A stretch of DNA of 37,073 bases. Origin: a virus (taxonomy: Duplodnaviria; Heunggongvirae; Uroviricota; Caudoviricetes). Positions 825 through 27,646 of the stretch are shown piece by piece. The notes under the pieces were generated by a model. It worked only from the letters and a program-made list of their open reading frames with translations, searched no databases and was not told where the DNA came from. The first letter of the stretch is position 1, and every line of letters begins with the position of its first letter. The stretch covers positions 1-37,073 of IMG/VR virus record IMGVR_UViG_2778261421_000003; one strand, written 5' to 3'. Position numbers and translations under genes: made by a program.

Positions 825-1994
825 ATGGGAAAGAATAGTCAACGTAGGCGAGATAATAAAATTAAGCGAGAAAATGAGAAAAAAAGAAACTTAGCGGCAA
901 AGATAAATAAAATGTTGTATATAAAGCCTGATATATTTTTTGATGAATCAGGTAATACTGGCGGAAATTTACTCGATCCATTGCAACCTGTTTTTACCTT
1001 AAGTTCAAGTAGTATTAGTAAACAGGATGCGCTTAAGGCATTAGAACTAACCGGAAGCAAGTCTCCAACAGAAGCCCACTTTAAAACTCTTAGACGTAGA
1101 AAATCTGGTCAGGATGGCATCATTAGGCTTCTTGAAAGCAAATATGTCAATGAAGAGAATGTTAAAATATACTTGGTCGATAAAAAATACATGCTAACAG
1201 CAAAGATTGTTGATATTTTGATCGAGACGTGGTGCTCTAATAGAGGAATAGATCTTTATATAAATGGACAGAATCTAGCTCTGTCTAATGTTTACTATTT
1301 CTGTTTCCCTGCTTTCTGTGGGGAGGAAAAAACAGAGGTAATGTATCAGTGTTTTATGAATATGATCAGAAGCCAATCGACTGAGTCAATTGATGAATTT
1401 TACAGGGTAATTGATGAGTTAAAGATATGCTCAAGTGATAAGATATTCACAGATATAATAAACAGAATTAGTATTACCAGAAGCGATATTGATGATATAT
1501 TGGAAGGTGTTGAGAAAAGCACATTAGATCCATCTATACCAAGCCTCTTTAGACACTGTGTAGAATGGGGTAAATTATACCCTAATGGTTTTTATATTAA
1601 GCATGACGATTCCAAAGCTATTACAGAGAAGAAAGATATTTTTGATAAATTTATGGATATATCAAAAATTACGGAGGCATATGGTTATGATCGAAGAAAA
1701 TTTGAATTGCCAATTAAAGCTCGTTCTTTGACATTCCATTCATCACAAGAGTATCCTCAATTACAAATTGTAGATATAGTAGCAAGTGCGGCTGCTTATT
1801 ATGTTAACTGTCTAAAAAGAAATGACTTAGAAGATTATCTCTTTAAAGAACTTCAAAGAATAAAAATAGATAACTATTTTAAAAATATGGCCATTTGGCC
1901 TACAACATATGTTACACCTCAAGAATTAGGCACAATTTATACTGGTGGGCGAAACCCTGCAGATGGAGTCGCTGATTATCTTTCTCAATATTAG
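825..1994 (+). CDS. Hypothetical 389-aa protein with DUF3800-like motifs; candidate accessory or anti-phage defence protein
   Basis: Long ORF in a markedly AT-rich island between ogr and D, on the opposite strand to both. Near the N-terminus is YIKPDIFFDESGNTG, and near the C-terminus LQIVDIVASAAAYY, which match my recollection of the DUF3800 family motifs. Has its own promoter-like hexamers and RBS, and a downstream hairpin. Confidence 0.6.
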   Translation: MGKNSQRRRDNKIKRENEKKRNLAAKINKMLYIKPDIFFDESGNTGGNLLDPLQPVFTLSSSSISKQDALKALELTGSKSPTEAHFKTLRRRKSGQDGIIRLLESKYVNEENVKIYLVDKKYMLTAKIVDILIETWCSNRGIDLYINGQNLALSNVYYFCFPAFCGEEKTEVMYQCFMNMIRSQSTESIDEFYRVIDELKICSSDKIFTDIINRISITRSDIDDILEGVEKSTLDPSIPSLFRHCVEWGKLYPNGFYIKHDDSKAITEKKDIFDKFMDISKITEAYGYDRRKFELPIKARSLTFHSSQEYPQLQIVDIVASAAAYYVNCLKRNDLEDYLFKELQRIKIDNYFKNMAIWPTTYVTPQELGTIYTGGRNPADGVADYLSQY

Positions 1995-2016
1995 TAACTG
2001 GAGTTTTAATTAATAT

Positions 2017-2038
2017 GGCCGCGTTAGCGGCCTTTCTA
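2017..2038. terminator. Hairpin between the convergent cargo gene and gene D
   Basis: GGCCGC-gtta-GCGGCC stem-loop followed by TTTCT on the plus strand and an AT-rich run on the minus strand; sits between two convergent stop codons. Confidence 0.45.
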
Positions 2039-2085
2039 ACTATGTTTATTGCTAGTACATATCTGAACTAATACATTTAAGACAT

Positions 2086-3195
2086 TCACGCTGTTTCTGC
2101 TATCCATTCCGGGATTTTTGCCTCAAGCTCAAGCTGCGTGGTAAAGCCGCTGTTATCAATAGTGTGCTCGGCTTTTGCAATGATCCAGTCCTGATTATCA
2201 ATCTCGCTTTTAAATCCTGTTACCGTACCATGCATTTCGGGGTAGAGTTCTGCACGTCCACGCGCCAGCGTGATGGAGAATGATGCGGCTCCGCGTTGTA
2301 GCTGCTGCCACTTTGCCGCCGCTGCGCGTCTTGCTGCCTGCTCGTTCTGATAGGTCTTGCGTAACACAAACACATTGCCTTCCGCGCCTTCCATATAATC
2401 ACCTTCACGGCTGCTGCTTTTCTCCTTTTTGGGTTTTGGCGGTTTGCGGCGTTTCACGCTGACTTTTTTCTTTTTCCCGTAATTAAGATCAAGCCAGTAA
2501 GCGCGTACCCCCGTATACGCTTCGCGGTCAGCAATGCGGAACTGATGGCGATCGCCACTGCTGCGCGTGATGGCGAACGAGGGCAACGGCTGGCCCTGTG
2601 CGTTCACGCCACCGCCTGGCATGATGAATAACAGATTACCGCTTTTTACCGTAGTGATTGCGCCCAGCATTTCTGCCATGCGCGTAAGGAAGGACATGTC
2701 GCTTTCTTCGGTCTGGTCAGCGTGGTCGATTTCAATATCCATCAGCATTTCGCTGATTTGTGGTTTCAGACCGTACCGATGAGCGATGGCGGATACCACG
2801 CGCTCAACGGTCACATCATGCCAGGACACCTCACGTTTAACGTTAAATTCATCCCGAAAATCTGCGCTTCTGGCTGAAACCGTCAGCCTGTCCGGCGGTC
2901 CTTCGTGAGCGATTTCATCAACAATGTAAGTGCCTTTTTCTGTCAGCGGTTCTCCTTTCCAGCCAATGAGAACCGTCAGGCGCGCGCCCCGTGGCGGTAG
3001 CAGCAACTGACCATCCGCATCATCCAGCGTGATGGTGAGCTGGTCCGCCTCAAATCCCCGGTTGTCGGTCAGTGACAGGCTCATCAGGCACTCTGCCACG
3101 CCTGACAGCGTTTTACCCTCCGCGAGAATATCAAAATCCGGCATTTTCACGGGGTCTGTGCCCTGACTGAGCAATTGCATGGTGGTGTCGGTCAT
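2086..3195 (-). CDS. D: P2 gpD-like tail protein
   Basis: The listed ORF runs to 3327, but the likely start is the ATG at 3193-3195 (MTDTTMQLLSQG), preceded by GGAGGGAG. Size of about 369 aa and position next to ogr match P2 D. Confidence 0.8.
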   Translation of the reverse strand: MTDTTMQLLSQGTDPVKMPDFDILAEGKTLSGVAECLMSLSLTDNRGFEADQLTITLDDADGQLLLPPRGARLTVLIGWKGEPLTEKGTYIVDEIAHEGPPDRLTVSARSADFRDEFNVKREVSWHDVTVERVVSAIAHRYGLKPQISEMLMDIEIDHADQTEESDMSFLTRMAEMLGAITTVKSGNLLFIMPGGGVNAQGQPLPSFAITRSSGDRHQFRIADREAYTGVRAYWLDLNYGKKKKVSVKRRKPPKPKKEKSSSREGDYMEGAEGNVFVLRKTYQNEQAARRAAAAKWQQLQRGAASFSITLARGRAELYPEMHGTVTGFKSEIDNQDWIIAKAEHTIDNSGFTTQLELEAKIPEWIAETA

Positions 3196-3352
3196 CTGCT
3201 CCCTCCCTGTGCGGCATGGTCGCATGTGCGTGCGGAGGGGGTTACTGCTTTTTGTTGTCGCCGTGGCGGGAGAACGGCGCAGGGGTGAGATTACGCGCGT
3301 GGTGGGTGATGATTGTTGCCGAATCATTTAACGGATACAAGGGGCTGAAGCT

Positions 3353-4537
3353 ATGAGTGAAACTCGTTTTCATGGTGCCCGTGTTACGGAAAGTACCGAC
3401 CTGGTAACAGCGATTAATGATGTTGATTCCAGCGTTATCGGTATCGTGGCAACGGCGGATGATGCGGACGCGAAGCTGTTCCCGCTGAACAAGCCCACAC
3501 TGCTGACCCGCGTCAATGACGTGCTGGGAAAATGCGGGACAACGGGGACGCTTTATCGTGCGCTTAAGGCCATCGCAGACCAGGTGAGCACAAAGGTGAT
3601 CGTCGTTCGCGTGGCTGAACACAAAGAAGAAAACGGAAAGACGCAGGATCAACTGGTTATCGGTGGTTCTGAATCTGACGGCAGCTATACGGGGATGTAT
3701 GCGCTGCTTGTTGCAGAGCAGGATGAAAGCATCGGATACCGTCCGCGTATTCTGGCCGCGCCGGAGCTGGACACGGAGGCGGTGACAAAATCCCTGTGCG
3801 TGATTGCGGGTAAACTGCGCGCGTTTGTGTATGCCGCATGTCATGGTTGTAACACGATGGCTGAGGCGATTACCTACCGCCAGAAATTCAACGAACGTGA
3901 GGTGATGCTCTTATGGCCTGACTTCATCGCCTACAACCCGAAAAGTGGCAAAAACGAAACGTTCCCCGCGCCTGCTTATGCGTGCGGCCTTCGTGCGTAC
4001 ATTGACCATGAGCAGGGCTGGCACAAATCGCTGTCCAACGTTCCGGTTAAAAATGTGCTGGGGATGTCGAGGCATGTGTTCTGGTCGTTACAGGCCGAAG
4101 ACAGTGATGCCAACAGCCTCAACAACAAAGAAATCACGACCATTATTCGTCGTAACGGGTTCCGCTTCTGGGGCAACCGCACACCGGAAACGAACGCCTA
4201 CATCTTTGAGGTGTATACCCGAACCGCACAGGTGCTGGCTGATTCAATTGCGGAAGCGCAGTTTGAAACCATCGACAGTCCACTGACGCCTGCGAACGTG
4301 AAGGATGTTATCAGTGCCATCAGGGCAAAACTGGATTCACTGGTTACTGCCGGGAAACTGATTGGCGCGGAGTGCTGGTATGACATCGTGGATAACAGCA
4401 CCACGAATTTACGTCAGGGGCGTGTGCGTATTCGCTACAAATATACGCCCGTTCCGCCGCTGGAAGACATGGAGCTTTACCAGTCGTTTACTGATGAATT
4501 CTTTGGTCCCGCATTTGCGGTGCTGGGAGGTGCCTGA
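3353..4537 (+). CDS. FI: Contractile tail sheath protein (gpFI)
   Basis: 394 aa; the N-terminal region (VTAINDVDSSVIGIVATADDADAKLFPLNKPTLL) resembles P2 FI sheath. Immediately followed by the tube gene. Confidence 0.85.
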   Translation: MSETRFHGARVTESTDLVTAINDVDSSVIGIVATADDADAKLFPLNKPTLLTRVNDVLGKCGTTGTLYRALKAIADQVSTKVIVVRVAEHKEENGKTQDQLVIGGSESDGSYTGMYALLVAEQDESIGYRPRILAAPELDTEAVTKSLCVIAGKLRAFVYAACHGCNTMAEAITYRQKFNEREVMLLWPDFIAYNPKSGKNETFPAPAYACGLRAYIDHEQGWHKSLSNVPVKNVLGMSRHVFWSLQAEDSDANSLNNKEITTIIRRNGFRFWGNRTPETNAYIFEVYTRTAQVLADSIAEAQFETIDSPLTPANVKDVISAIRAKLDSLVTAGKLIGAECWYDIVDNSTTNLRQGRVRIRYKYTPVPPLEDMELYQSFTDEFFGPAFAVLGGA

Positions 4538-5049
4538 TGGCTGTACCAAAACATCTTCGCTTTTTTACGCTGTTTGTGGATGGTGAAAACGAAGTGGGTA
4601 AGGTGACGTCCGTCACGCCGCCCAAACTGACGCGCAAAACCGACAGCTATCGTGGTGGTGGCATGATGGGGGCGGTAAGTATTGATCTCGGTCTGGACGA
4701 CTCCGCGCTTGATGCGAGTTTTGTTATGGGGGGAGCTGTTCGTGCGCTGTTCCTTAAATATGGCGGCACGATTGACGGCACGCTGCTGCGTTTTGCGGGT
4801 GAATACTACACCGATGCAGAAAGCGATCTGTATGAAATCGAGATGCGCGGGCGTGTGACGGAAATTGATATGGGGGAGGCCAAACAGGGCGAAGCCACAT
4901 CACACACTTACGCTGTCAAAAACACCTACTACAAGCTGAGCGTTAACGATCGCCCGCTGTGGGAAATCGACCTGTTGAACCACATCTACCGGAAGGACGG
5001 CAAGGACATTGTGCCTGACCGCATTCGTTCCGCGCTTGGGCTTGGCTGA
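4537..5049 (+). CDS. FII: Tail tube protein (gpFII)
   Basis: 170 aa, start overlaps the FI stop. Size and position match P2 FII. Confidence 0.8.
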   Translation: MAVPKHLRFFTLFVDGENEVGKVTSVTPPKLTRKTDSYRGGGMMGAVSIDLGLDDSALDASFVMGGAVRALFLKYGGTIDGTLLRFAGEYYTDAESDLYEIEMRGRVTEIDMGEAKQGEATSHTYAVKNTYYKLSVNDRPLWEIDLLNHIYRKDGKDIVPDRIRSALGLG

Positions 5050-5104
5050 TAAGTAATATGCAGGCGGCGCAGTGCGTCGCCTCTGACTGAAAAGGAGACA
5101 ACTG

Positions 5105-5479
5105 ATGAAAGATATCGATACTGAAACCCGGAATAACACCGTAGCGGATGATGTGACGGCAGGTGAGGATATGGCTGTCGAACGTGGTGTAAAACTTTCC
5201 CGGCCAATTGAGCGTGGTGGCGAAAAAATCACATATGTGGAGATCACCGGGGCTATTGAGCAGGCGGGATCCCTGCGTGGTCTGTCGCTGTCTGATGTGC
5301 TGAATCTGAAAGCGGATACCATGTTCACGCTGTTGCCTCGCGTGACCTCGCCACGACTGGATGAAGTGATGATTAAAAAAATGTCGTCACGCGATTTTAT
5401 TCAGTTGTGCGCTGTGGCTGTAAATTTTATGAGCGAGCCAGACTCTGGCGCGAAGAGCGTGCAGGAGACGGCAGCGTAA
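5105..5479 (+). CDS. E: Tail assembly chaperone gpE
   Basis: 124-aa ORF between the tube and tape-measure genes, the position of P2 gene E. Confidence 0.7.
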   Translation: MKDIDTETRNNTVADDVTAGEDMAVERGVKLSRPIERGGEKITYVEITGAIEQAGSLRGLSLSDVLNLKADTMFTLLPRVTSPRLDEVMIKKMSSRDFIQLCAVAVNFMSEPDSGAKSVQETAA

Positions 5480-5643
5480 TCACCCTGGTGTGCTTTGAGC
5501 ACATCGAAGATCTGGTGGCGGATATTGCCGCCATTTTTAACTGGTCGCCCGCCGAAATCTTCATGATGACGCCCGGCGAAGTGGTTAGCTGGCGCGAGCG
5601 GGCGGCACTTCGCAGCGGGAATGCAGACAATGAAGACTCTTGA
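5105..5643 (+). CDS. Tail assembly chaperone E+E' made by a programmed -1 frameshift
   Basis: The -1 frame is open from 5377 to 5643 and overlaps the end of E. The heptamer A_AAT_TTT at 5422-5428 fits the X_XXY_YYZ slippery pattern in the E frame. P2 is known to make E+E' this way. Confidence 0.45.
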
Positions 5644-8437
5644 TATCCGGGTCGCTTTCAGCGCCGTTGACAGGCTGACCCGGCCTGCCGAAAACGCCCG
5701 CCGCCTGATGGGGCAGTTTGGTGACTCCATCCAGCGAACGCAGGGGGCGATCAAAAATCTCGAGCGTCAGGCGCGTTCATTTGAGCGCGCCCGTGACGCT
5801 GTCAGTAAAGCGGATGCGGGCATCGTGAAAGCACGACGCCAGCTTAACGCCCTTAATCAGTTACAACGCACGGGTACAGTGCTCAGCGAAAAACAACAAA
5901 AGCTGATGCAGCAGTTAAGCACCCGGCTTGAACGCCTGAATGAATCGCGCACACGGGAAATTCAGAAAATGCGGGAACTTGGCGGAGAGCTGAAACGCCA
6001 CGGCATTTCCCTGACAGGCAGCGATAACACCATCCAGCAGGCCATCAGACGCACCGAACAGTACAACAACCAGCTTGAACGCGAACGGCAGGCGCTTGCG
6101 CGTGTAACGCGGGCGCGTGAGCGGTATTCGCGCGCGCAGGAAACCGCGGGAAAACTGAAAACAGGTGGTGCGCTGACAATTGGTGCGGCAGCGGCTGGCG
6201 GCTATGCTGCCGGGCGTTTTTTGCAGCCTGCGATCGGGTTCGGGAAAGAGATGTCCCGCGTTCAGGCACTGACGCGAATCGACAAAAACAGCCCGCAGTT
6301 TAAGGCGCTGCGTGAGCAGGCGTTAAAACTTGGCTCTGAAACACAGTTTACTGCGAGTGATGCCGCCAGTGGACAGAGCTTTCTGGCAATGGCTGGTTTT
6401 ACTCCGCAGGCCATTCAGGCCGCATTGCCCGGTGTTCTTAATATGGCGCTGGCAGGTGGCGTCGAACTCGGCGAGACGGCGGATATAGGCTCCAATATCC
6501 TCACACAGTTCAACCTGACAGCCGATCAAATGGACCGGGTTGGCGATACGCTGACAGCGGCATTCACCCGGACCAATACTGATTTACGCGCGCTGGGCGA
6601 AACCATGAAGTATACCGGTCCGGTTGCCGCAAAACTTGGTATCAGTCTTGAAGAAGCGGCAGCCATGGCCGGGATGCTTGCCAATAATGGTCTTCGCGGA
6701 AGCGATGCTGGTACGGCCATGCGCGCAAGTCTGTCCCGCCTTGCATCACCGCCAAAAGCTGCGGCTGATGCACTGAAAGAGCTGGGGGTGTCAGTTGCTG
6801 ACGCCAGAGGCAAAATGCGCCCGATGGAGGATGTGCTGCTTGATCTCTATAAGGCGACACAAAAATACGGACAGGTGGACCAGGTCTCCTTCTTCAAGGA
6901 CATCGCCGGAGAAGAGGCGTTCGTTGGTTTGCAGACGCTTGTTGCGGCGGCTGGTTCAGGAGAGCTGCAAAAACTGACCAGAGAATTGCAGGGGGCAAGG
7001 GGAGAGTCCGATCGCGTTGCAAAAGTAATGGCCGATAATCTTGATGGGGACCTGAAAAATCTCGACAGCGCATGGGAAGGTCTTCGTATTCGCATCAGTG
7101 ATCTGGTTGACGGTCCGCTGCGTTCTGTCACGCAGTGGCTCACGCGGGTGCTTGAAAAAGTCACCTCGCTGGCGCAGGCCCATCCGGTACTGACGCGCCA
7201 GCTACTGATAGCAGGCGGTGCGTTGCTGGCAATGACTGCAACGATTGGCTCGTTGTCGCTGGTTATTGGGGTGCTTTACGGGAAGCTGGCCACCCTGCGT
7301 CTTGGTTTTGACATTCTTACCCGGTCAATGAATGTCGTCAGGGTGTTGCCTGCGCTGTGGGGAATGGTGACGGGTTCCGTTTCTTTGCTGGGAGGCGCTA
7401 TCGGGGCGCTGTTCAGTCCGGTCGGATTGATTGCTGCTGCGTTTGTGGCTGCGGCGGTTCTCATCTGGAAATACTGGGAACCCATTAAGGCGTTTTATGC
7501 CGGGGTGTTCAACGGGATTATGGAAAGGCTGAACCCGTTGCGCGAAACCTTTGAACGGTTTGGTCCTGTTTTTGACGCAATCGGAAGCGGGATCAGCCAG
7601 GTGTTTAACTGGTTTAAATCGCTGCTGTCACCGATGGAATCCAGCAAGGAAACGCTGGATAAATGTACCAGTGCTGGCGAGATATTCGGTAACGTTCTTG
7701 GCGGTGCGTTACAACTTGTTCTGACGCCTGCAAAAATGTTGCTGGATACGCTGGCGTGGATACTTGAAAAACTTGGCGTCCTTCCGGATGAAGCGGAAAG
7801 GGCGCGCAAGAAAATCGAAGACGCACAGCGTGCGGCCATTCTTCAGGACAAGGTTGCCTTACTTCAGGGGGACCTGGCGAAAATCAATCCGCCGAAGCCT
7901 GTGGAAAATGGCAATGGCACCGGAGGTGATAAACCCAAAGACAACAAACCGCTCACAGACAGCAATACCGGGACGCTGCGCAGACTCAGCAAAATTGCTG
8001 ATAACACAGGTAAGCTGGTTGATGAGACGAAAAAACGCATTGGCCCCGGCGATATTGTCTTTAAGAACCTGCCCCGCGCACTTGCTGTTCGTGGGGAGTG
8101 GCAGGAGCGGAAGATTGCGCAGGTCAGTAAGCCTGCCCCCGCAATTAATATCACACCCGTGGTTCCGGCTCCGCTGCCTCCGGCGCTGGTCCCTGTTGTT
8201 GCGGCCAGCTCCCGCCCGGTGGCGGAGGCCATACGATCGCCAGTGGCATCAGTTCCTGCAACTTCCCGTAACCGGGAGCCTGTTGCCTCCGGATTTGGCG
8301 GTGAAATTCATGTTCATCTGCATAACATTGTTACACAGAATCCCCGCGAACTGGCGAAACTGGTCGGTGAAATGGTTAGGGCAGAAATGGAACGGCGCGC
8401 CCGTGCCGGGCGTGGCAGTTTTTACGATAAAGATTGA
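5621..8437 (+). CDS. T: Tail tape measure protein (gpT)
   Basis: 938 aa with a coiled-coil-rich N-terminal half, Gly/Ala-rich hydrophobic segments and central transmembrane-like stretches. Sits between E/E' and U. Confidence 0.85.
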   Translation: MQTMKTLDIRVAFSAVDRLTRPAENARRLMGQFGDSIQRTQGAIKNLERQARSFERARDAVSKADAGIVKARRQLNALNQLQRTGTVLSEKQQKLMQQLSTRLERLNESRTREIQKMRELGGELKRHGISLTGSDNTIQQAIRRTEQYNNQLERERQALARVTRARERYSRAQETAGKLKTGGALTIGAAAAGGYAAGRFLQPAIGFGKEMSRVQALTRIDKNSPQFKALREQALKLGSETQFTASDAASGQSFLAMAGFTPQAIQAALPGVLNMALAGGVELGETADIGSNILTQFNLTADQMDRVGDTLTAAFTRTNTDLRALGETMKYTGPVAAKLGISLEEAAAMAGMLANNGLRGSDAGTAMRASLSRLASPPKAAADALKELGVSVADARGKMRPMEDVLLDLYKATQKYGQVDQVSFFKDIAGEEAFVGLQTLVAAAGSGELQKLTRELQGARGESDRVAKVMADNLDGDLKNLDSAWEGLRIRISDLVDGPLRSVTQWLTRVLEKVTSLAQAHPVLTRQLLIAGGALLAMTATIGSLSLVIGVLYGKLATLRLGFDILTRSMNVVRVLPALWGMVTGSVSLLGGAIGALFSPVGLIAAAFVAAAVLIWKYWEPIKAFYAGVFNGIMERLNPLRETFERFGPVFDAIGSGISQVFNWFKSLLSPMESSKETLDKCTSAGEIFGNVLGGALQLVLTPAKMLLDTLAWILEKLGVLPDEAERARKKIEDAQRAAILQDKVALLQGDLAKINPPKPVENGNGTGGDKPKDNKPLTDSNTGTLRRLSKIADNTGKLVDETKKRIGPGDIVFKNLPRALAVRGEWQERKIAQVSKPAPAINITPVVPAPLPPALVPVVAASSRPVAEAIRSPVASVPATSRNREPVASGFGGEIHVHLHNIVTQNPRELAKLVGEMVRAEMERRARAGRGSFYDKD

Positions 8438-8443
8438 GGAGTC

Positions 8444-8938
8444 ATGGCCATGATGATGATCTACGGCATGTTTGTTTTTGAGCTGCGCACGCTGCCGCAT
8501 CAGCAGTTACAGCAAAACAAAAGCTGGCGGCATGTGAAAAATGAACGCGTTAACCGTTCAGCAGGCTGGCAGTATATCGGCGCAGGTGATGATCGCATTG
8601 TGCTTTCCGGCGTGCTTTATCCTGAAATTACAGGTGGCGAAGTGTCGCTTTCGTTGCTGACCACGCAGGCATATACAGGACGCCCCTGGCCTCTGATTGA
8701 TGGTGTCGGGCAGATTTACGGCATGTATGTACTGACTGAAACGAATACGACCCGTTCCGAGTTTGATCGCTATGGTAAGGCGAAAAAGATAGAATTTTCA
8801 CTGACTCTTGAACGCTGTGATGAGGATTTGCGGGAGCGCCTGCAATCCTCATCGTTCAGCGATATGCTGTCCGGCTTCAAAGATAAAGTGACATCATCTC
8901 TTAACAGCGCGGCCAGCTCCGTTAAAGGGCTGTTTTGA
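8444..8938 (+). CDS. U: Tail protein gpU
   Basis: 164 aa directly after the tape measure gene; size and position match P2 U. Confidence 0.75.
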   Translation: MAMMMIYGMFVFELRTLPHQQLQQNKSWRHVKNERVNRSAGWQYIGAGDDRIVLSGVLYPEITGGEVSLSLLTTQAYTGRPWPLIDGVGQIYGMYVLTETNTTRSEFDRYGKAKKIEFSLTLERCDEDLRERLQSSSFSDMLSGFKDKVTSSLNSAASSVKGLF

Positions 8939-8945
8939 TTAACGC

Positions 8946-8975
8946 AAAACCGCTAATGGTCAGATTAGCGGTTTT
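8946..8975. terminator. Palindromic hairpin shared by the convergent U and invertase genes
   Basis: Perfect 12-bp stem AAAACCGCTAAT / ATTAGCGGTTTT with a 6-nt loop, followed by TTTTCATTTTCC. The invertase stop codon lies inside the stem. Confidence 0.5.
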
Positions 8976-9564
8976 CATTTTCCTGAGTCTGCCTGGTTGT
9001 TTCTTCAGCCTGTATATCGCCTACAGGGTGATAACGATAAATCGTCGATATGCCGATGTCGTAAATGATCGCCAGTTGTTTCCTGTCATGACCGTTTTTA
9101 ATCAGCCTCGCTATTTGCTCGTGTTGTTCTTTTGTCAACTTCGGGCGACGTCCGCCAATGCGTCCTTGTGCGCGTGCTGCTGCCAGCCCGGCCAGTGTAC
9201 GCTCTACAATTAATTCACGTTCCATTTCGGCTAAAGCCCCCATGACGTGAAAAAAGAAACGCCCCATGGGTGTTGACGTGTCAATGCTGTCCGTCAGACT
9301 ACGGAAATTAACACCTTTTTCCCGCAATTCCTCAATAAGCGTGATCAGGTGTTTCATACTTCTGCCCAGTCTGTCCAGCTTCCAGACAACCAGCGTATCT
9401 CCTTCTGATAGCGTTCTGAGCAGTTTTTTCAATCCCGGTCTGGTTGATTTCGTTCCGCTGATTTTATCTTCAAAAATCAGTTCACATCCTGCGCAGTTCA
9501 GTGCATTGCGTTGTAAATCCGTGTTCTGGTCGTTTGTTGACACACGAATATAGCCAATTTGCAT
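8965..9564 (-). CDS. pin: Serine DNA invertase of the Hin/Gin/Cin/Pin family
   Basis: True start is the ATG at 9562-9564 (MQIGYIRVSTNDQNTDLQ), giving the catalytic-serine motif of small serine recombinases and a C-terminal HTH (GISTIYRY). The upstream extension in the ORF track is rejected. Confidence 0.85.
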   Translation of the reverse strand: MQIGYIRVSTNDQNTDLQRNALNCAGCELIFEDKISGTKSTRPGLKKLLRTLSEGDTLVVWKLDRLGRSMKHLITLIEELREKGVNFRSLTDSIDTSTPMGRFFFHVMGALAEMERELIVERTLAGLAAARAQGRIGGRRPKLTKEQHEQIARLIKNGHDRKQLAIIYDIGISTIYRYHPVGDIQAEETTRQTQENENR

Positions 9565-9578
9565 AAAAAACATCCTCT

Positions 9579-10097
9579 TTGTTTCGTGAAAAATACAGAG
9601 TTGGTATAGGTAGGGATAAAAACGAAAACGTTGGTTTGGGGGAAGGCTCTGCATTGCCTGTTGGTGTACCGGTTCCGTGGCCCACCGCCACACCGCCAGA
9701 AGGCTGGTTAAAGTGCGACGGGCGCGCCTTTACAAAAGAACAATATCCTGTTCTGGCCAGAGCCTACCCGACCCTCCGTCTTCCCGATTTACGCGGTGAA
9801 TTTATTCGTGGCTGGGATGACGGACGTGGTGTGGATGCCGGGCGACAATTATTATCTTCACAGGGGGATGCAATAAGAAATATTGAGGGATTCGCAGATG
9901 GCGGGATCGGTATGTCTTTTGATGCAATCAGAGGGGCTTTTTACGATGCAGGAACACGATCAGCGAGAATGCCGAATAACACAACTACTATAGACAAAAC
10001 CGATGACCTTGGATTCGACGCCTCTCGTGTCGTGCCAACAGCTAATGAAAACCGTCCTCGTAATATTGCCTTTAATTATATCGTAAGGGCGGCATAA
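9579..10097 (+). CDS. Promoterless alternative tail-fibre C-terminal cassette 1 (inverted orientation)
   Basis: Encodes LGLGEGSALPVGVPVPWPTATPPEGWLKCDGRAFTKEQYPVLA ... NIAFNYIVRAA, sharing both its first 65 aa and its last 12 aa with the C-terminus of the minus-strand fibre gene H. The middle is divergent. Confidence 0.6.
   Translation: MFREKYRVGIGRDKNENVGLGEGSALPVGVPVPWPTATPPEGWLKCDGRAFTKEQYPVLARAYPTLRLPDLRGEFIRGWDDGRGVDAGRQLLSSQGDAIRNIEGFADGGIGMSFDAIRGAFYDAGTRSARMPNNTTTIDKTDDLGFDASRVVPTANENRPRNIAFNYIVRAA
9625..9830 (+). repeat. Conserved 5' cassette repeat containing crossover candidate A
   Basis: About 200 bp nearly identical to 10096-10310 and to the reverse complement of 11510-11721. 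Begins AAAACGTTGGTTTGGGGGAAGGCTC, which contains a GGTTT half-site like hix/gix sites. Confidence 0.6.
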
Positions 10098-10310
10098 AAA
10101 CGTTGGTTTGGGGGAAGGCTCGGCGCTGCCCGTTGGTGTACCTGTTCCGTGGCCCACTGCCACACCGCCAGCAGGCTGGTTAAAGTGCGACGGGCGCGCC
10201 TTTACAAAAGAACAATATCCTGTTCTGGCCAGAGTCTACCCGACCCTCCGTCTTCCCGATTTACGCGGTGAGTTTATCCGTGGATGGGACGACGGGCGCA
10301 AAGTTGATAC
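10096..10310 (+). repeat. Conserved 5' cassette repeat containing crossover candidate B
   Basis: Direct repeat of 9625-9830 and inverted repeat of 11510-11721. Confidence 0.6.
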
Positions 10311-10620
10311 AGGACGTAAGTTGCTGTCCGCACAAGGGGCAACGCTGTTAAGAACAGCAATGCTGGATTATTATAACCAGGACACTACGGGAACCTCGGG
10401 GATAGTCGGCATGGGATTCAACAATGAAGATTCCATTACAGACCTTCGTGAGGGCAGCTTTAAAATGCCGGACGGGACAACATTCAGCGATCCTGTCATA
10501 GCAATGTCAGACAATGGTATGCAGGCTACTATTCTGACCTCTATCAGAAGCGGGTATGCGAAGGGTATCACTGTCAGACCCCGTAGCATTGCACTTAATT
10601 ACATTGTGAGGGCAGTTTAA
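10108..10620 (+). CDS. Promoterless alternative tail-fibre C-terminal cassette 2 (inverted orientation)
   Basis: Same conserved head (GEGSALPVGVPVPWPTATPPAGWLKCDGRAFT) and tail (SIALNYIVRAV) with a different middle. Directly followed by a tail fibre assembly gene. Confidence 0.6.
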   Translation: MGEGSALPVGVPVPWPTATPPAGWLKCDGRAFTKEQYPVLARVYPTLRLPDLRGEFIRGWDDGRKVDTGRKLLSAQGATLLRTAMLDYYNQDTTGTSGIVGMGFNNEDSITDLREGSFKMPDGTTFSDPVIAMSDNGMQATILTSIRSGYAKGITVRPRSIALNYIVRAV

Positions 10621-11234
10621 TGAGTAACACTGCAGTTCTGGATGAAAACGGTATCGCCACTGTAGCGGGCGATATCACTGTATATCACTATGACGAGGAA
10701 ACCCGGGAATACACCTCATCCTCTGTGGAGTATCTCGCCCTTGGGGTGGGTACTCCGGCACATTCGTGCGCCGATGCACCGCCGGAGGCAATTTCGGGTT
10801 ACGTGGTTTGCCGGACTGCCACGCTGAACGGGTGGGAGCATGTGCCTGATCACCGCGGCGAGACGGTATACAGCACGGAGAACGGTAACCCCGTTCTGAT
10901 TACCCAACCGGGTGATTACCCGGCGGACACCACCACAAAACAGCCAGCCACGCCATGGGATACCTGGAACGGTGAGGCGTGGGTAACCGATACTGAACGG
11001 CAGCGAACCGCAGAACTGGAGGTTGCCAGACAGCAACGCCAGCAACGGGTGAAACAGGCGATGGCGTCCGTCGATCTTATCAACCTCAAACTGCGTGCTG
11101 GTCGCAGTCTGACACCAGAAGAAACGGCAAAACTGAACGCCGTGCTGGATTATATCGACGAGCTGAACGCACTGGATATCAGCACGGCACCTGAAATCAG
11201 CTGGCCGGAAGCGCCACTGGCACTTGCCAGTTGA
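10620..11234 (+). CDS. Tail fibre assembly chaperone (Tfa, P2 gpG-like)
   Basis: 204 aa; the C-terminal region (APEISWPEAPLA, ERQRTAELEVARQQRQQR) resembles P2 G and Tfa proteins. Co-oriented with cassette 2 and opposite to the current H gene. Confidence 0.7.
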   Translation: MSNTAVLDENGIATVAGDITVYHYDEETREYTSSSVEYLALGVGTPAHSCADAPPEAISGYVVCRTATLNGWEHVPDHRGETVYSTENGNPVLITQPGDYPADTTTKQPATPWDTWNGEAWVTDTERQRTAELEVARQQRQQRVKQAMASVDLINLKLRAGRSLTPEETAKLNAVLDYIDELNALDISTAPEISWPEAPLALAS

Positions 11235-11240
11235 ACGGTA

Positions 11241-12965
11241 TCACGCCGCCCTCACGATATAGTTAAACGCGATATTGCGGGGGCGGGTTATGTTAAAGAA
11301 TGCTCCGTTTAATTCGGCTTTTGCGCGACTGTTTGTTCCACCCAGTATTGCGTACCACAAATAATCGCTACGGTAATTCCCCGCAAACACCTTATCGCCG
11401 CCATAGTCAATATTATTTCCGTTACTCATGTACGAGATATCAAGCGCAGAATCGTTATCGTCATGACCGCCGACCAGTGTACCTTTCTGCCATGAAAGCA
11501 ACTTACGCCCCTCGTCAATCTTGCGCCCGTCGTCCCATCCACGGATAAACTCACCGCGTAAATCGGGAAGACGGAGGGTCGGGTAGACTCTGGCCAGAAC
11601 AGGATATTGTTCTTTGGTGAACGTAGCTCCGTTGCACTGTAACCAGCCTGCTGGCGGTGTGGCGGTGGGCCATGGAACCGGTACACCAACAGGCAATGCA
11701 GAGCCTTCCCCCAAACCAAGGTAATTGAGGACATCTTTTATACTGCCCTTAGCGATAATAGCGCGACCAATAGCTGTAAGGGTTGCCAGCGCTGCGCGGT
11801 CTGCTCCGGTAAAATAAGGCAACCGATCTGCTGCAGTGGCAAGTCCTGCCAGAGCAGTGAGCGTGGCATCTGCCGGTTGTTTTCCGTTTGCCAGATCGTA
11901 TGCATCCTTGACCGCTTTCGGTGTGGCGGCCAGTATTTCAGACGTGCTGTTGATGGCATTGCTCAGTTGTACGGTGCCTTTTGCCGTCAGCGAGGCAGCA
12001 GGCACTCCCGTTATCTGACTCCATGGGTGAGTGTGGCTGACGGGGGCCTTGCCGGCTGCAAGGTCGTATGCCGCCTTGACGGCCTTTGGTGTGGCGGCCA
12101 GCGTTTCAGACGTGCTGTTGATGTCACTGCTCAATTGTACGGTGCCTTTTGCCGTCAGCGAGGCAGCAGGGACTCCCGTTATCTGACTCCACGGATGAGT
12201 GTGGCTGACGGGGGCCTTGCCGGCTGCAAGGTCGTATGCCGCCTTGACGGCTTTTGGTGTGGCGGCCAGCGTTTCAGAGGTGCTGTTGGTGGCACTGCTC
12301 AGTTGTACGATCCCTTTACGGGTCGTTGTTGCATCCTGGGCTGTGTATTTTCCCCAGGCCAGATCATACGCGATTTTCACAGCCTTCGGCGTGGCAGCCT
12401 CAGTTTCTGATTGACTGTCCGTGGCACTGCTAAGTTGAACAAAGCCTTTTGCGGTCAGCGAGGCGTCCGGGTGACGTCGTGACTGCTCGTGCTCTGATAT
12501 TTTATCATCCACATATTTGCGGGTTGCCAGAACCACAGACGGGTCGATTTTCAGCGTGATGGCTTCGGTGTTCGTGACAACCAGAATCATGCGGATAGTC
12601 TGGGTGCGTCCACTGCCTTCCTGCAACTGCGGTTTGTACGTTTCCGGGCAGTTTGCCACCGCAATGAGTACACCTTTATCATCATAAAGACCAATCTCAC
12701 GGATCCAGAATCCTCCCTCGCTTTCAGGGATGATTTGCTCCGCAATAATCTGGCTCTGATTGTTAGGGTCAACACTCAGAAGATTCAGCGGTGCAATGCG
12801 TTTCTGGTTAATCAGTTTTGTTTGTGCAGGGTCTGGTGTTGGTAACACACCATTTGCATCACCAACGGCCATTTGCGTCAGATTCAGCTTACTGCCGAGC
12901 ATCGTCGCGTTAGCCAGTCGTGCCGCGCCCTGATTAGTCAGAATGGCGTAGTATTTCACTGTCAT
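11241..12965 (-). CDS. H: Tail fibre protein gpH with the currently expressed C-terminal cassette 3
   Basis: 574 aa; the N-terminus resembles P2 H, the middle has tandem repeats, and the C-terminal 135 aa carry the cassette head and the FNYIVRAA tail. Confidence 0.85.
   Translation of the reverse strand: MTVKYYAILTNQGAARLANATMLGSKLNLTQMAVGDANGVLPTPDPAQTKLINQKRIAPLNLLSVDPNNQSQIIAEQIIPESEGGFWIREIGLYDDKGVLIAVANCPETYKPQLQEGSGRTQTIRMILVVTNTEAITLKIDPSVVLATRKYVDDKISEHEQSRRHPDASLTAKGFVQLSSATDSQSETEAATPKAVKIAYDLAWGKYTAQDATTTRKGIVQLSSATNSTSETLAATPKAVKAAYDLAAGKAPVSHTHPWSQITGVPAASLTAKGTVQLSSDINSTSETLAATPKAVKAAYDLAAGKAPVSHTHPWSQITGVPAASLTAKGTVQLSNAINSTSEILAATPKAVKDAYDLANGKQPADATLTALAGLATAADRLPYFTGADRAALATLTAIGRAIIAKGSIKDVLNYLGLGEGSALPVGVPVPWPTATPPAGWLQCNGATFTKEQYPVLARVYPTLRLPDLRGEFIRGWDDGRKIDEGRKLLSWQKGTLVGGHDDNDSALDISYMSNGNNIDYGGDKVFAGNYRSDYLWYAILGGTNSRAKAELNGAFFNITRPRNIAFNYIVRAA
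11510..11721 (-). repeat. Conserved cassette repeat inside H containing crossover candidate C (inverted relative to A and B)
   Basis: Reverse complement of 11701-11721 is CCTTGGTTTGGGGGAAGGCTC, matching the starts of repeats A and B. Confidence 0.6.
11830..12420. repeat. Tandem 168-bp (56-aa) repeats in the H shaft
   Basis: Units starting about 12001 and 12170 are nearly identical (protein repeat ...TAKGTVQLSS.INSTSE.LAATPKAVKAAYDLAAGKAPVSHTHPWSQITGVPAAS); more diverged copies flank them. Confidence 0.7.
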
Positions 12966-16506: not shown

Positions 16507-18387
16507 TTATGCTGCGGGATTATTGATTTCCAGCACCAGGCTGCCGATATCGACGCCGTACGCGGCATTTTTAGTGATATCAGTTAACGTCAGCGCATTC
16601 AGCCCCAGTGTCAGACTGTCTTTTATGACCTGGAATGCCGGGCCAGCCACTCCATTCAGTTTCGGAGTAACCGTGGCACTGCCGGCGGTGAACACCAGCT
16701 CCAGCGTCTGCCAGTCGTTACTGTAATTCCCGAACTCGCCCAACTTTGTGTTTCCGGCTTTCTTGTGATGCATCAGATTCAGTTTGCCGTCTGTGGTCTG
16801 GGTGAAGAACGACATCAGGAACGGGTTACCAGTCCCGGTCATCGCCACGACGTCAGGTAACGCTACATCGGTATACAGATAAATTCCCAGACCGAACTGG
16901 TTGTTGGTCAGTGCGCCTGACAGTCGAAACTTACAGCTCAGTCTGCCACCCCGTGTCAGCAGGGAGACTGCGTCATCCACCGGATGCATCAGGGACCAGG
17001 TTTTATTGCTCTGCTTGGTAACCTTAAACACACCATCTTCCAGCGCAACACTGCCGCCGGTGATGGTCCAGCCCTGCGCAGCAGCCTCTCCGGCTGTCGG
17101 CAGCAGGGAGACTGTACGAACGGATGTGTCACCATCAGACGGCCCCGATGGAGTGTCGCCGCCGGGCGAGGGTTTAATCTCCGGTGCGGTACCGCTGATG
17201 AAGGCGCTGGTTCGACCAACTGCGTTCAGAATAGCGGTTGCCAGGCGATCCGAAATAATGCCCCTGCGCGCCCATGAACTGAAATGTGTCGGACGATTTG
17301 ACGATACCCAATTACCATTACTACGGGATTGCGCGCCGTAATAACCTGCATCAGCAATATCCGGGTCTTCTGCCGGTAAGTTGGTGGGCGTGTTGTTGCC
17401 GTTACCGTCGGTCATGAACGGCACAAAGAAAACGTTGTCGCTCTCCCTGTTTTTGTACGCGCCGTAGACGGAGTCATACTGTGTGCCGTATGTGTTTTTC
17501 CAGTAATACGTCGTGTCGCCACAAATCCACGGTACAACTGCAGCACTGCCGCCATGGCACTGCGCGTTAAATCCGGAAAGGTCAGTACGGAACTGCTTCA
17601 GCATGGCCGTGAACAGGTCCGGTTGCTGTGCGTAGGTGGCAGCGCTCATGTCAAATTCGCCCTGCATCCAGCACACCGCCAGCAACACATTTTTCGGGTT
17701 CTTCTGTAATGCAGCTTTAGTGCGCGCAATCAGGTCCTGATATAACGGTTTACCCACACCCCAGCGCGCCGAATCCTGGCTGGCCCCCGTGGTCGTACTG
17801 AATGTTCCCTCCGCGCCCTGAGTGAATGCCGAACCACCACGACAGCATGGTACCAGCAGGATCCCCGCGTTATTCGGGATATACGGGAGCAGTTTTTTGG
17901 CAATATGTAAGCCCTGGCCGACACAGCCGTACTGCCCTTTGCTCAGGTCTGCCTTCGGATGATTCAGTGCGCTCATATCCTGAACATCATGCAGGCAGTG
18001 GTCTGCCGGAATGATGTCGTTAAATGCGCATGCTTTACCACCGGGAGTCACTGTGTTGCGACGGGCCAGTTGCTTAATGCGTGGGTGGGGCGCATCGTAA
18101 GAATCCGGCAGCGGCATTCCATCACCATATGACATGGCATTGGATTGACCAGCAAGTACCACCACGTAATACCACTCCGGCACGCTGCCGTGCTGGGGGG
18201 AATCAGGTGAGATGTCTGTAGTGCCATCGGCCACCATTGCCTGCATTAGATACCACGGGGTGCCGGGTTCGTAGGCAACCCGCGTCTCCCCCTGAAGATG
18301 CCACCCTTTCGCAAGATGTTCATTCACCTTTTGAGTCAGTTCAGCCTGTGTCATGGCTGTAATCAGTGCAAAGTTCTTACTGGTCAT
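16507..18387 (-). CDS. Prophage sialate O-acetylesterase-like protein (NanS-p-like): DUF1737-like N-terminus, SASA/SGNH esterase core, C-terminal beta-rich domain
   Basis: 626 aa. N-terminus MTSKNFALITAMTQAELTQKVNEHLAKGWHLQGE resembles DUF1737; VVVLAGQSNAMSYG is the GQSN motif of SASA-type esterases. Sits between lysC and R, where P2 has no gene. Confidence 0.6.
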   Translation of the reverse strand: MTSKNFALITAMTQAELTQKVNEHLAKGWHLQGETRVAYEPGTPWYLMQAMVADGTTDISPDSPQHGSVPEWYYVVVLAGQSNAMSYGDGMPLPDSYDAPHPRIKQLARRNTVTPGGKACAFNDIIPADHCLHDVQDMSALNHPKADLSKGQYGCVGQGLHIAKKLLPYIPNNAGILLVPCCRGGSAFTQGAEGTFSTTTGASQDSARWGVGKPLYQDLIARTKAALQKNPKNVLLAVCWMQGEFDMSAATYAQQPDLFTAMLKQFRTDLSGFNAQCHGGSAAVVPWICGDTTYYWKNTYGTQYDSVYGAYKNRESDNVFFVPFMTDGNGNNTPTNLPAEDPDIADAGYYGAQSRSNGNWVSSNRPTHFSSWARRGIISDRLATAILNAVGRTSAFISGTAPEIKPSPGGDTPSGPSDGDTSVRTVSLLPTAGEAAAQGWTITGGSVALEDGVFKVTKQSNKTWSLMHPVDDAVSLLTRGGRLSCKFRLSGALTNNQFGLGIYLYTDVALPDVVAMTGTGNPFLMSFFTQTTDGKLNLMHHKKAGNTKLGEFGNYSNDWQTLELVFTAGSATVTPKLNGVAGPAFQVIKDSLTLGLNALTLTDITKNAAYGVDIGSLVLEINNPAA

Positions 18388-22362: not shown

Positions 22363-23199
22363 TCAGAAGTCAGCCAACTGGTCGGAGGCTGCGCCCGTTG
22401 CGGTGAAGCGGTTCTGCGGATCGCCGTCCTGCGTGCGCAGTTTTTCCTTCAGTGTTGTCAGCTCTGTGGTCAGTGACGTGATTTTCTGGCTGTCCTGCTG
22501 ATGGCGGGTTTCCAGTGCATTAAAACGGTCGATAATGTCGGCCTGTGACGTTGCGACACCTTCCACCGCTTCCTGAATACGGGAGAAACTGGCGTCATCC
22601 GCTTTGCGGCCACGGCCAATAATCCCCATAACGCGGTTAAACCACTGGGTGCCTTCTTCCTGACGATGTTCGGTGAGTTCGATGAGTTCCGACTCCATAG
22701 CGGCGGTGAACATCGCCACCTCTCCCTGCTGACAGTTGAATGTCATCAGTTGCATACGTTGTTGTGCCGCAAAGGCCAGACGTTCCGTGCCCAGGCTGGC
22801 GGGGGTGTCGGTCATTGCCAGCCCGCGCAGGTAAGGGCCTCCCGTGATGGTTGACTGTGGTTCCAGCTCAATACTGGAGTAAATTTTTTTACCATCGTTA
22901 AGCAGGGACATCATGCGAGTGGTCGGCTCAATTTCGGCATACAGTGCCGTGCGGCCTGCCAGCGGGCCATCGGTTATGTCTTCGGTGCTCAACCCCACAA
23001 CATCGCCCATAGCGGAAAACTCGCTACCGGGGAGTGGTGACAGGATGTGCTCAATATTCACACGTGCACCATAAACGGACGGGTTATAACTGGTGGCGGC
23101 AGCTTTCAGCATGTCGCCGTTGATTTCGCGCCCGTCTGCCGTTACACCGGAGACAGCCACGCGAAACTTTTTGCGGGATGTCTTTTTTTCATTAGCCAT
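22363..23199 (-). CDS. O: Capsid scaffolding protein gpO
   Basis: Start chosen at the ATG at 23197-23199 (MANEKKTSRKKFRVAVSGVTADGREI), preceded by GAGGGG. Divergent from P, as in P2. Confidence 0.8.
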   Translation of the reverse strand: MANEKKTSRKKFRVAVSGVTADGREINGDMLKAAATSYNPSVYGARVNIEHILSPLPGSEFSAMGDVVGLSTEDITDGPLAGRTALYAEIEPTTRMMSLLNDGKKIYSSIELEPQSTITGGPYLRGLAMTDTPASLGTERLAFAAQQRMQLMTFNCQQGEVAMFTAAMESELIELTEHRQEEGTQWFNRVMGIIGRGRKADDASFSRIQEAVEGVATSQADIIDRFNALETRHQQDSQKITSLTTELTTLKEKLRTQDGDPQNRFTATGAASDQLADF

Positions 23200-23353
23200 A
23201 GTTTTTGCCCCTCTGACTGGTTCTTCAGTCATGATGGCAAAGCGTAACAGGCAGATACAAAGGGCTTTTGTTGTAAGAAAACAGTCAGAGCAGGGGGTTA
23301 AGGAGAACGGTTTCGCGCGCGGGTAATCTTCCTGTAATTACTCAGGGGGAGCA

Positions 23354-27289: not shown

Positions 27290-27646
27290 ATGGAAATGAA
27301 TATGAAAACTGTAACTGATGATGAATTTCGTGAGAACCTGAGTGAAATTCTGGATTACCTTTCTTCCGGTGGCAGTGTCGTTATCACTGCGCAGGGAGGG
27401 AAGGATGTTGTTCTTGCTGGTTCTGATCTTAGTCCTGAAATACGGGCTGTCCTTGGCAAAACCAAAAAACTGCGGGATCAAATAAACAAAATGAAGCAAC
27501 CACTCTTAATAAATGCAGTGAGAGATCTGGAAAAACGTCATCCAGCTCTTGTCGCACAGAGAAAAAAAGGATTGTCTTTTGAAGATGCAATGAAGCGTAC
27601 AAGAGAAAAACATGCGGATATCATTAAAAAGCTTGAGGATAACTGA
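27290..27646 (+). CDS. Phd/YefM-like antitoxin (extended, about 118 aa)
   Basis: N-terminal region VTDDEFRENLSEILDYLSSGGSVVITAQGGKDVVLAG resembles Phd/YefM antitoxins. Stop overlaps the start of the Doc-like gene (TGATG). Alternative start at the ATG at 27302. Confidence 0.55.
   Translation: MEMNMKTVTDDEFRENLSEILDYLSSGGSVVITAQGGKDVVLAGSDLSPEIRAVLGKTKKLRDQINKMKQPLLINAVRDLEKRHPALVAQRKKGLSFEDAMKRTREKHADIIKKLEDN

Follow-up and report, generated by a model that had tools for sequence, protein, structure and literature searches.

Inverted FI-U tail block in a P88-like prophage of Escherichia coli: a fixed, lineage-typical gene order with a predicted shared late control region

The window analysed here is a stretch of 37,073 nucleotides from a tailed-phage genome (IMG/VR record IMGVR_UViG_2778261421_000003). 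Pfam assignments confirmed both the gene identities and the strands of the original prediction: D and ogr lie on the minus strand together with V through H, and FI-FII-E-T-U (3353-8938) occupies the plus strand (Table 1). The Ogr product is 98-99% identical to the P88 and phiSM copies and 36-43% identical to Ogr of P2 and Fels-2; identities to the P2 and Fels-2 proteins are 48-53% for D, 45-48% for FI and 33-35% for E. An overlapping ORF at 355-573 was considered as ogr and rejected in favour of the one listed. The D start codon is preceded by a Shine-Dalgarno sequence, GGGAGGGAG. Both ATGs flanking the divergent spacer are where they had been placed, the spacer itself measuring 157 nt instead of 158 bp.

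Table 1. Features of the tail region and of the O/P comparison region (positions in the window)
Feature	Positions	Strand	Description
ogr	332-592	minus	Ogr/Delta-type zinc-finger late activator, 86 aa; PF04606, E 4.7e-14
D	2086-3195	minus	Tail/baseplate hub, 369 aa; Phage_GPD, PF05954
D/FI spacer	3196-3352		Divergent control region, 157 nt, between D ATG (3195) and FI ATG (3353)
Predicted D late promoter -10	3216-3221	minus	GACCAT; predicted TSS ~3207-3209
Ogr-type activator site	3256-3273		TGT-N12-AGA, centre 3264.5; 5/6 bases of the TGT-N12-ACA dyad
Predicted FI late promoter -10	3308-3313	plus	GATGAT; predicted TSS ~3320-3322
FI	3353-4537	plus	Tail sheath; sheath Pfam domains
FII	4537-5049	plus	Tail tube; Phage_tube, PF04985, E 2e-45
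E	5105-5479	plus	Tail assembly chaperone; Phage_TAC_7, PF10109, below curated cut-off; E' frame next
T	5621-8437	plus	Tape measure; PhageMin_Tail, PF10145, E 1.6e-56
U	8444-8938	plus	Tail protein, stop 8936-8938; Phage_P2_GpU, PF06995, E 7.7e-39
Terminator-type hairpin	8946-8975	both	Bidirectional, U and pin convergent; A-tract, 8-12 bp stem, T-tract
pin	8965-9564	minus	Pin/Gin-type serine DNA invertase of the tail-fibre switch; Resolvase and HTH_7
H	11241-12965	minus	Pfam
O-side hexamer	23231-23236		CATCAT; offsets of the two O/P hexamers 43-49 nt
Second Ogr-type site	23272-23289		TGT-N12-AGA in the O/P divergent spacer; internal comparison
P-side hexamer	23324-23329		TAATCT

The window represents an E. 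coli prophage that belongs to the P2 family and is P88-like (Xuanwuvirus). Its set of P2 late-gene homologues is complete (Q P / O N M L X ... R S V W J I H, FI FII E T U D and ogr); each was recovered at 30-66% identity when the window proteins were compared with P2 and Fels-2 by tblastn, in agreement with the Pfam families. The nucleotide similarity and collinearity with P88 or P884B11 by which the genus is recognized extend genome-wide: a 7.8-kb region matches Xuanwuvirus relatives at 91.7-94.1% identity across 96% of its length, and positions 11300-36000 are 94.7% identical to P88 over 74%. Coverage multiplied by identity gives ~0.70-0.88, an estimate rather than an exact intergenomic distance, which is at or above the usual 70% genus level. 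A PADLOC scan of the cargo genes returned only weak matches, to a Doc-like protein.

The canonical P2 arrangement, with FI-FII-E-T-U-D as one operon co-oriented with V-W-J-I-H, is absent from the window. P2 and Fels-2 both have the block and ogr co-oriented with V-W-J-I-H, so the block had rightly been called inverted relative to P2. The canonical order is no requirement of the ICTV family Peduoviridae, four genera of which (Xuanwuvirus, Novemvirus, Reginaelenavirus and Senquatrovirus) have members with the inverted order. Besides P88, phiSM, P884B11 and 500465-2, the phage records showing it include phiT5282H (Novemvirus), 3LV2017 (Reginaelenavirus), SEN5 (Senquatrovirus) and Serratia phage KSP20.

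Within E. coli the order is fixed. The D/FI junction is intact in 1356 of 5426 complete genomes (1356 of the 1380 with a match), about one complete E. coli genome in four carrying a P88-like prophage. The whole run from D and FI to U and pin aligned as a single collinear BLAST piece in 1103 complete E. coli genomes, with identities of up to 99.9%. A synthetic query for the canonical U-to-D junction found it in one place in none of 1387 matching E. coli genomes, and orientation polymorphism is absent across more than 1300 collinear complete genomes. In a survey of bacterial genomes, all 29 genome loci with a D at least 61% identical to that of the window, spread over many Enterobacterales genera, were inverted and all loci with a D at most 54% identical were canonical; the monophyly of the inverted clade is judged here by these identity bands of one protein and not by a tree.

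P88 is inducible and plaque-forming, its tail is contractile and its burst size is ~65 (PMC5285337); phiSM both produces plaques and establishes lysogeny (PMC6456863), and SEN4/5 have been described as temperate phages of the Myoviridae (PMC5261728). The flipped block is the ordinary inherited order of working P88-like phages. Of the options originally offered for the layout, the lineage-specific one is chosen, on the strength of the collinear E. coli genomes, the viable phages and the uniform order in all relatives with a D at least 61% identical. Working relatives that share the orientation, which the original prediction had named as counter-evidence together with a mapped late promoter for D, were found; that promoter is predicted rather than mapped. 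Papers on P88, phiSM, SEN4/5, S. marcescens PP4, kosakonicin and a Xenorhabdus tailocin make no mention of the orientation of the FI-U block, and literature searches found no explicit description of the inverted order; the xenorhabdicin locus of the Xenorhabdus tailocin paper appears canonical.

The D/FI spacer matches that of the Xuanwuvirus relatives save for a few substitutions. It had been reported to lack a TGT-N12-ACA element, which is literally true, but it contains a TGT-N12-AGA element with a single mismatch. A strict search of the window for TGT-N12-ACA gave eight matches, none of them in late intergenic spacers; this pattern is too narrow, since the pF and pO/pP sites of P2 itself read TGT-N12-CCA. 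In the window, TTTTGTTGT-N12-AGA occurs only in the D/FI and O/P spacers. At the orthologous position, 25 of 33 inverted-layout loci and the majority of canonical loci have the TGT-N12-ACA dyad without mismatch; the site lies 79-86 nt upstream of the FI ATG in relatives and 88 nt upstream in the window. Whether the half-site is AGA or ACA co-varies by lineage between the D/FI and O/P sites, AGA being the form in Xuanwuvirus and Novemvirus. The window site itself departs from the P2 consensus in having AGA, not ACA.

Hexamers resembling a -10 element are found 43-48 nt from the centre of the D/FI site on both sides. Of the regions upstream of FI, 31 of 31 in the inverted layout and 33 of 35 in the canonical one have nAnnAT at this distance, and on the D side 30 of the 32 distinct sequences have it at the mirror-image position, where the background is 0.2 per position, these counts coming from related, aligned sequences that are not independent observations. 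The distance from the site centre to the D start is also conserved (66-82 nt), as is a CGCGCG block in spacers that have otherwise diverged, and the architecture as a whole is preserved across the inverted clade. In the window, the GACCAT on the D side is a weak -10 and the predicted D leader is short (~13-15 nt). A composite pattern of site, spacing and nAnnAT matched the whole window seven times (1.6 expected); with the exception of the FI-side D/FI element (3256-3313), no match precedes V or falls within the late intergenic spacers, and the pattern misses the P-side promoter, whose hexamer is TAATCT. The overlap of S with V suggests that V through H are co-transcribed with the O operon.

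Ogr/Delta-dependent late promoters of the P2 type have a TGT-N12-ACA dyad centred near -55 and a -10-like element but no good -35, and start in an activator-dependent manner ~55 nt from the site centre. The D/FI geometry mirrors the shared PP/PO site of P2, leading us to predict that D has its own divergent late promoter acting from the shared Ogr-type site. D, which has a Shine-Dalgarno sequence of its own, would thus be transcribed separately, and the suggested severing of D from its promoter is probably not real, given the Ogr-type site and the predicted mirror-image -10 elements. Read-through offers no source of D transcripts, because only antisense FI lies upstream on the D strand. The layout might be lineage-typical and D nevertheless be expressed from a different signal, for instance a spacer promoter that does not require Ogr. 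We consider this unlikely. The weakness of the D-side hexamer and the short leader are in its favour, as is a sigma-70 consensus scan of 1900-11400 that found no promoter in 3196-3352 on either strand, although a blank result is expected of activator-dependent promoters. Against it are the conserved position of the D-side hexamer, the conserved distance from the site to the D start, the retained CGCGCG block and a geometry equal to that of PP/PO.

We regard it as very probable that this P88-like prophage carries the fixed ancestral order of a large clade of P2-like phages rather than the product of a local event, that the order arose through a single ancient inversion in place and that the late genes are served by two bidirectional control regions. 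What is observed here is the layout with its fixation and distribution, and the conserved architecture of the sequences; the single inversion, the binding of the activator, the two start sites and termination are inferred. The inverted segment would have extended from the pF activator site to the end of U, which would have placed the Ogr-binding site, with its dyad symmetry, between FI and D and uncoupled D from U. Late genes would then be read from the O/P and D/FI regions, each with one Ogr-type site centred ~55 nt from two mirror-image start sites, those at O/P being predicted near 23336-23338 (plus) and 23222-23224 (minus). FI through U would be transcribed rightwards as far as a bidirectional hairpin terminator held in common with the convergent invertase gene, and D leftwards from its own late promoter with its own ribosome-binding site. 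The specific proposal that the inversion turned the pF site into a second bidirectional late region, with one Ogr site driving both FI-U and an independent D, seems to us reasonably likely.

Phage genomes are mosaic, and a foreign FI-U cassette gained by recombination and inserted by chance in the opposite orientation would give the same present-day map, the event being too old for breakpoint scars. Such a replacement is nonetheless quite improbable. FI, FII and U are 43-48% identical to their P2/Fels-2 counterparts and J, N, P and Q 41-54%, with lower values of 30-35% for E and T; adding D to FI, FII and U gives a range of 43-53%, and this likeness to the other late genes, together with a pF architecture that is identical in both layouts, favours an inversion in place over a module swap. 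The FI promoter moreover keeps the exact family architecture and its half-site variant follows the O/P site of the same genome, which points to a long shared residence with the Ogr of this lineage.

At the other end of the block, U and pin converge on a palindromic hairpin as originally described, the pin stop (8965-8967) lying inside it. The element, which has a 12-bp stem, was found by a terminator scan and folds with -15.6 kcal/mol on the plus strand (z -3.0) and -16.9 kcal/mol on the minus strand (z -5.4). Transcription is predicted to terminate here in both directions, so the antisense run of plus-strand transcripts across pin that had been envisaged is probably not real either.

The neighbouring invertase gene, whose product is 81% identical to that of Fels-2, abuts the U end of the block and drives the adjoining multi-cassette fibre switch, with its inverted repeats of 229-236 nt; it had been suggested that such an enzyme flipped FI-U through secondary crossover sites. 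A recent or ongoing inversion of this kind, which would make the block a switchable segment, is very improbable. No inverted repeats pair 3196-3352 with 8939-8975, where a search for them had been proposed as a check; only short chance-type pairs turned up, none of them joining the two boundaries. The genuine crossover repeats map to 9628-10328 and 11487-11722, and the FI-U block is not bounded by inverted crossover sites. Both orientations do not occur among close relatives: the alternative was never seen among ~1390 E. coli genomes (0/1387, against 1356 with the D/FI junction). An invertase is nearby at only three of the 29 inverted-layout genome loci in other genera, the remaining 26 having no invertase match in the vicinity, and flipping the block back would destroy the conserved arrangement of the D promoter. 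The Pin/Gin-type invertase is not involved in the orientation of the tail block. Mis-orientation of the 5.6-kb block during contig building, a suggestion based solely on the difference in order from P2 and Fels-2, has a negligible likelihood, as both junctions are contained in the 1103 single collinear alignments and in independently sequenced phage genomes and the block has no flanking repeats long enough to mislead an assembler.

The inverted order is thus the normal state of P88-like prophages and is compatible with viable phage. Where P2 or Fels-2 serves as the annotation template, such prophages will repeatedly be flagged as rearranged or mis-assembled, and the finding serves mainly to correct this. 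The predicted shared Ogr site illustrates how a dyad-symmetric activator site may allow an inversion to split an operon without loss of late control. The model makes a testable prediction for regulation in the P2 family, and the layout is a possible taxonomic marker. If the second bidirectional region is real, the classic four-operon late programme of P2 would have been rewired in a way so far unreported, and the Peduoviridae would have a clean genomic marker of a grouping above genus level, comprising at least Xuanwuvirus, Novemvirus, Reginaelenavirus, Senquatrovirus and KSP20-like phages.

The closest known systems are P88, P884B11, 500465-2 and Citrobacter phage phiSM (Peduoviridae), in which the order and orientation of ogr, D, FI-U, the invertase gene and H-V are identical to those of the window, the 7.8-kb region being 92-94% identical over 96% of its length between the window and these Xuanwuvirus members. 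The morons differ (DUF3800 in the window, hok/gef in P88 and tagO in phiSM), as does the set of fibre cassettes, and the window has an extra gene for a 626-residue esterase-like protein (16507-18387) compared with the Xuanwuvirus members.

The F operon of P2 (FI-FII-E-E'-T-U-D, under the Ogr-dependent pF) has the FI-U genes and their internal order in common with the window. The architecture of pF is also that of the window: the dyad site precedes the FI ATG by ~82 nt, and the -10-like hexamer is 43-49 nt away from the site centre. In P2 this hexamer stands 7-9 nt before the annotated start site. In P2, however, D shares a transcript with U, whose end it overlaps, and the operon has the same direction as V through G, whereas in the window D diverges from FI and FI-U converges on the fibre region. 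For PP/PO, the P2 record annotates one activator site for both promoters, 55.5 nt from each start; the O/P and D/FI spacers of the window show this same geometry of a single dyad-symmetric site midway between divergent late units, with starts that are annotated for PP/PO and are predictions at D/FI. Fels-2 (Felsduovirus), which has a Gin/Cin-type fibre invertase, matches the window in gene set and in the placement of the invertase gene between the tail block and the fibre cassettes, but its order is canonical, ogr-D-U-T-E-FII-FI-pin, with all genes on one strand.

An ORF map and Pfam scans of the window (see the table) bear out the gene calls made earlier, and the original observation that the FI-FII-E-T-U tail block (FI-U) is inverted also stands. 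In the annotated records of P2 and Fels-2, FI-FII-E-T-U-D-ogr all lie on the strand of V through H, and the homologies to these records were confirmed by running tblastn with the window proteins; compared with both phages, the FI-U block is thus flipped in place. The D start codon at 3195 is preceded by a GGGAGGGAG ribosome-binding site.

Features of the window and the family matches or remarks that accompany them
Feature	Position	Strand	Match or remark
ogr	332-592	minus	PF04606, E 4.7e-14
72-aa ORF	355-573	minus	overlaps ogr in a different frame; no family match
DUF3800 gene	825-1994	plus	low GC (~33%); in ogr-D slot
D	2086-3195	minus	Phage_GPD
GACCAT, D side	3216-3221	minus	predicted -10
GATGAT, FI side	3308-3313	plus	predicted -10
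FI, sheath	3353-4537	plus	Pfam
FII, tube	4537-5049	plus	Pfam
E	5105-5479	plus	
T, tape measure	5621-8437	plus	
U	8444-8938	plus	
Serine invertase (pin)	8965-9564	minus	
Fibre cassettes and tfa gene	9579-11234	plus	
H, I, J, W, V, S, R ... through L, M, N, O	beyond fibre region	minus	
626-aa protein gene	16507-18387	minus	DUF1737, SASA-type carbohydrate acetylesterase domain, DUF6645; between lysis genes and R
P and Q	after O	plus	
Antitoxin-toxin pair	27290-28053	plus	Phd/YefM-type and Fic/Doc-type; low GC; between Q and replication gene
SPFH/Band 7 family protein gene	32180-33010	minus	early region

A collinear region with 91-94% identity is present in Escherichia phages P88, 500465-2, 520873 and PhiR44_2, Xuanwuvirus P884B11 and Citrobacter phage phiSM, and the strands are identical in the annotations of these P88-like relatives; the remainder of the window matches P88 with 94.7% identity across 74% of length. 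This collinearity and identity mark the window as a P88-like (Xuanwuvirus) prophage. Functional phages have this layout: P88 is induced by mitomycin C, forms plaques with a burst size of ~65 and has a contractile tail (PMC5285337), phiSM is plaque-forming and lysogenises strains of K-12 (PMC6456863) and SEN4/5 are reported as temperate Myoviridae (PMC5261728). The phiSM record (OR565851.1) is mis-annotated at 2294-4745, where D is called 'ogr' and 'late control gene D protein' is the name given to the sheath gene; its paper calls the virion a siphovirus, although genes for a sheath and tube are present.

A lineage-specific layout, a real rearrangement (for example by the invertase) and an assembly error had all been offered as readings, and only the first holds up. 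In a megablast search of 5426 complete E. coli genomes, 1103 contained positions 2000-9800 as a single collinear match to 80% or more of the query (identity up to 99.9%), and the D|FI junction (2800-3800) was intact in 1356 of the 1380 E. coli genomes having any match. The two halves of a canonical junction query, built by joining the U 3' end to the D 5' end on one strand, were found together in none of 1387 matching E. coli genomes. Inverted repeats were sought at the block boundaries, as suggested, and none connecting the two was found. The orientation is thus fixed, and the adjacent invertase does not flip the block.

The D sequences of the window, P2 and Fels-2 were aligned and used to fetch 80 loci with 10-kb flanks, drawn from one genome per bacterial species, on which the window late proteins were placed by tblastn. 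The 29 loci with a D 61-98% identical to that of the window (from Salmonella, Kluyvera, Kosakonia, Enterobacter, Klebsiella, Xenorhabdus, Photorhabdus, Providencia, Rouxiella, Hafnia, Yersinia, Morganella, Pectobacterium, Citrobacter and Dryocola) all have the FI-U block flipped with respect to D and V through H, while every surveyed locus with a D no more than 54% identical shows the canonical order; only three of the 29 have an invertase match nearby. Named phages with the inverted layout fall in four ICTV genera, namely Xuanwuvirus, Novemvirus (phiT5282H), Reginaelenavirus (3LV2017) and Senquatrovirus (SEN4/5), and Serratia phage KSP20 has it too. Since FI, FII, U and D (43-53% identity to their P2/Fels-2 counterparts) have diverged about as far as J, N, P and Q (41-54%), the comparison speaks more for a single ancient inversion in place than for uptake of a foreign tail module. 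A prophage on a contig assigned to a Gram-positive genus (NZ_JBQPOM010000071.1, 'Vagococcus sp. WN89Y') has late proteins mostly 91-99% identical to those of the window; this contig is probably contamination or a mislabelled assembly.

The invertase stop codon (8965-8967) lies inside a hairpin (8946-8975), flanked by an A-tract and, at its other end, a T-tract, that folds on both strands (-15.6 kcal/mol, z -3.0; -16.9 kcal/mol, z -5.4) and is shaped like a bidirectional intrinsic terminator between the convergent U and invertase genes. Owing to this hairpin, the plus-strand read-through across pin into the fibre cassettes proposed earlier appears unlikely. Positions 9579-12965 form a multi-cassette fibre switch, in which two alternative C-terminal cassettes without promoters (9579-10097 and 10108-10620, both plus) and, after them, a single tfa (10620-11234, plus) face H (11241-12965, minus); the C-terminus that H expresses at present lacks a tfa in its own orientation. 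The inverted repeats of the switch are 229-236 nt long and 84-89% complementary, and the cassette period of 472 bp matches a ~471-bp length difference in some E. coli matches.

The ogr-D slot holds the DUF3800 gene in the window, a hok/gef gene in P88 and a tagO-like gene in phiSM, and is thus a variable moron site; no PADLOC match was found for the DUF3800 gene. P88 and phiSM lack the 626-aa esterase-like protein, which might modify surface glycans or be an enzyme associated with the virion.

The inverted FI-U arrangement is ordinary: it occurs in about a quarter of complete E. coli genomes, and annotated genomes of viable phages that carry it are already public. The mildly new point is a predicted bidirectional late control region between D and FI, which bears on the concern raised originally that the inversion separates D from the F-operon promoter. 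As stated originally, the D|FI spacer (3196-3352) lacks a strict TGT-N12-ACA site for the Ogr-type activator; it contains TGT-N12-AGA instead, and the sites of P2 itself are imperfect too (TGT-N12-CCA at pF and at pO/pP in the P2 record). The extended motif TTTTGTTGT-N12-AGA occurs exactly twice in the window, once in the D|FI spacer (3250-3273) and once in the divergent O|P spacer (23266-23289), against an expectation of 0.28, two copies being reached in 5 of 100 shuffles. In 25 of 33 inverted loci and most canonical loci, a perfect TGT-N12-ACA lies 79-86 nt before the FI ATG, at the orthologous position, and the site centre lies 66-82 nt from the D start codon throughout the clade despite otherwise diverged spacers. 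The half-site variant co-varies between the two spacers of one genome, with AGA at both in Xuanwuvirus and Novemvirus and ACA at both in Reginaelenavirus and Senquatrovirus.

In sequences anchored on the site, a -10-like nAnnAT hexamer was sought 43-48 nt from the centre. It was present on the FI side in 31 of 31 inverted and 33 of 35 canonical sequences and at the mirror-image position on the D side in 30 of 32, with a background elsewhere of 0.2-0.6 hexamers per position. Because the P2 pF hexamer, at an equal offset, sits 7-9 nt before the annotated start site, transcription in the window is predicted to start at ~3320-3322 (FI) and ~3207-3209 (D); no transcript mapping for the inverted clade was found in the literature searched. 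A GC-rich CGCGCG(CG) block lies between activator site and hexamer (3222-3245 and 23314-23321), kept at the same position on the D side across the clade (L007-L033 of the compared loci) and, in four genera, also on the P side of the O|P spacer. In the region 23199-23353, the ATG of the long O ORF, at 23232, overlaps the predicted O-promoter -10 (CATCAT, 23231-23236); the more likely start is the ATG at 23199, from which the P2-like O N-terminus (MANEKK...) is read. Together, the site position, the mirror-image hexamers and the half-site co-variation support a model in which a single Ogr-type site would drive two divergent late promoters, for D and FI, like the divergent PP and PO of P2, for which the P2 record annotates one common activator site, its centre 55.5 nt away from either start site.
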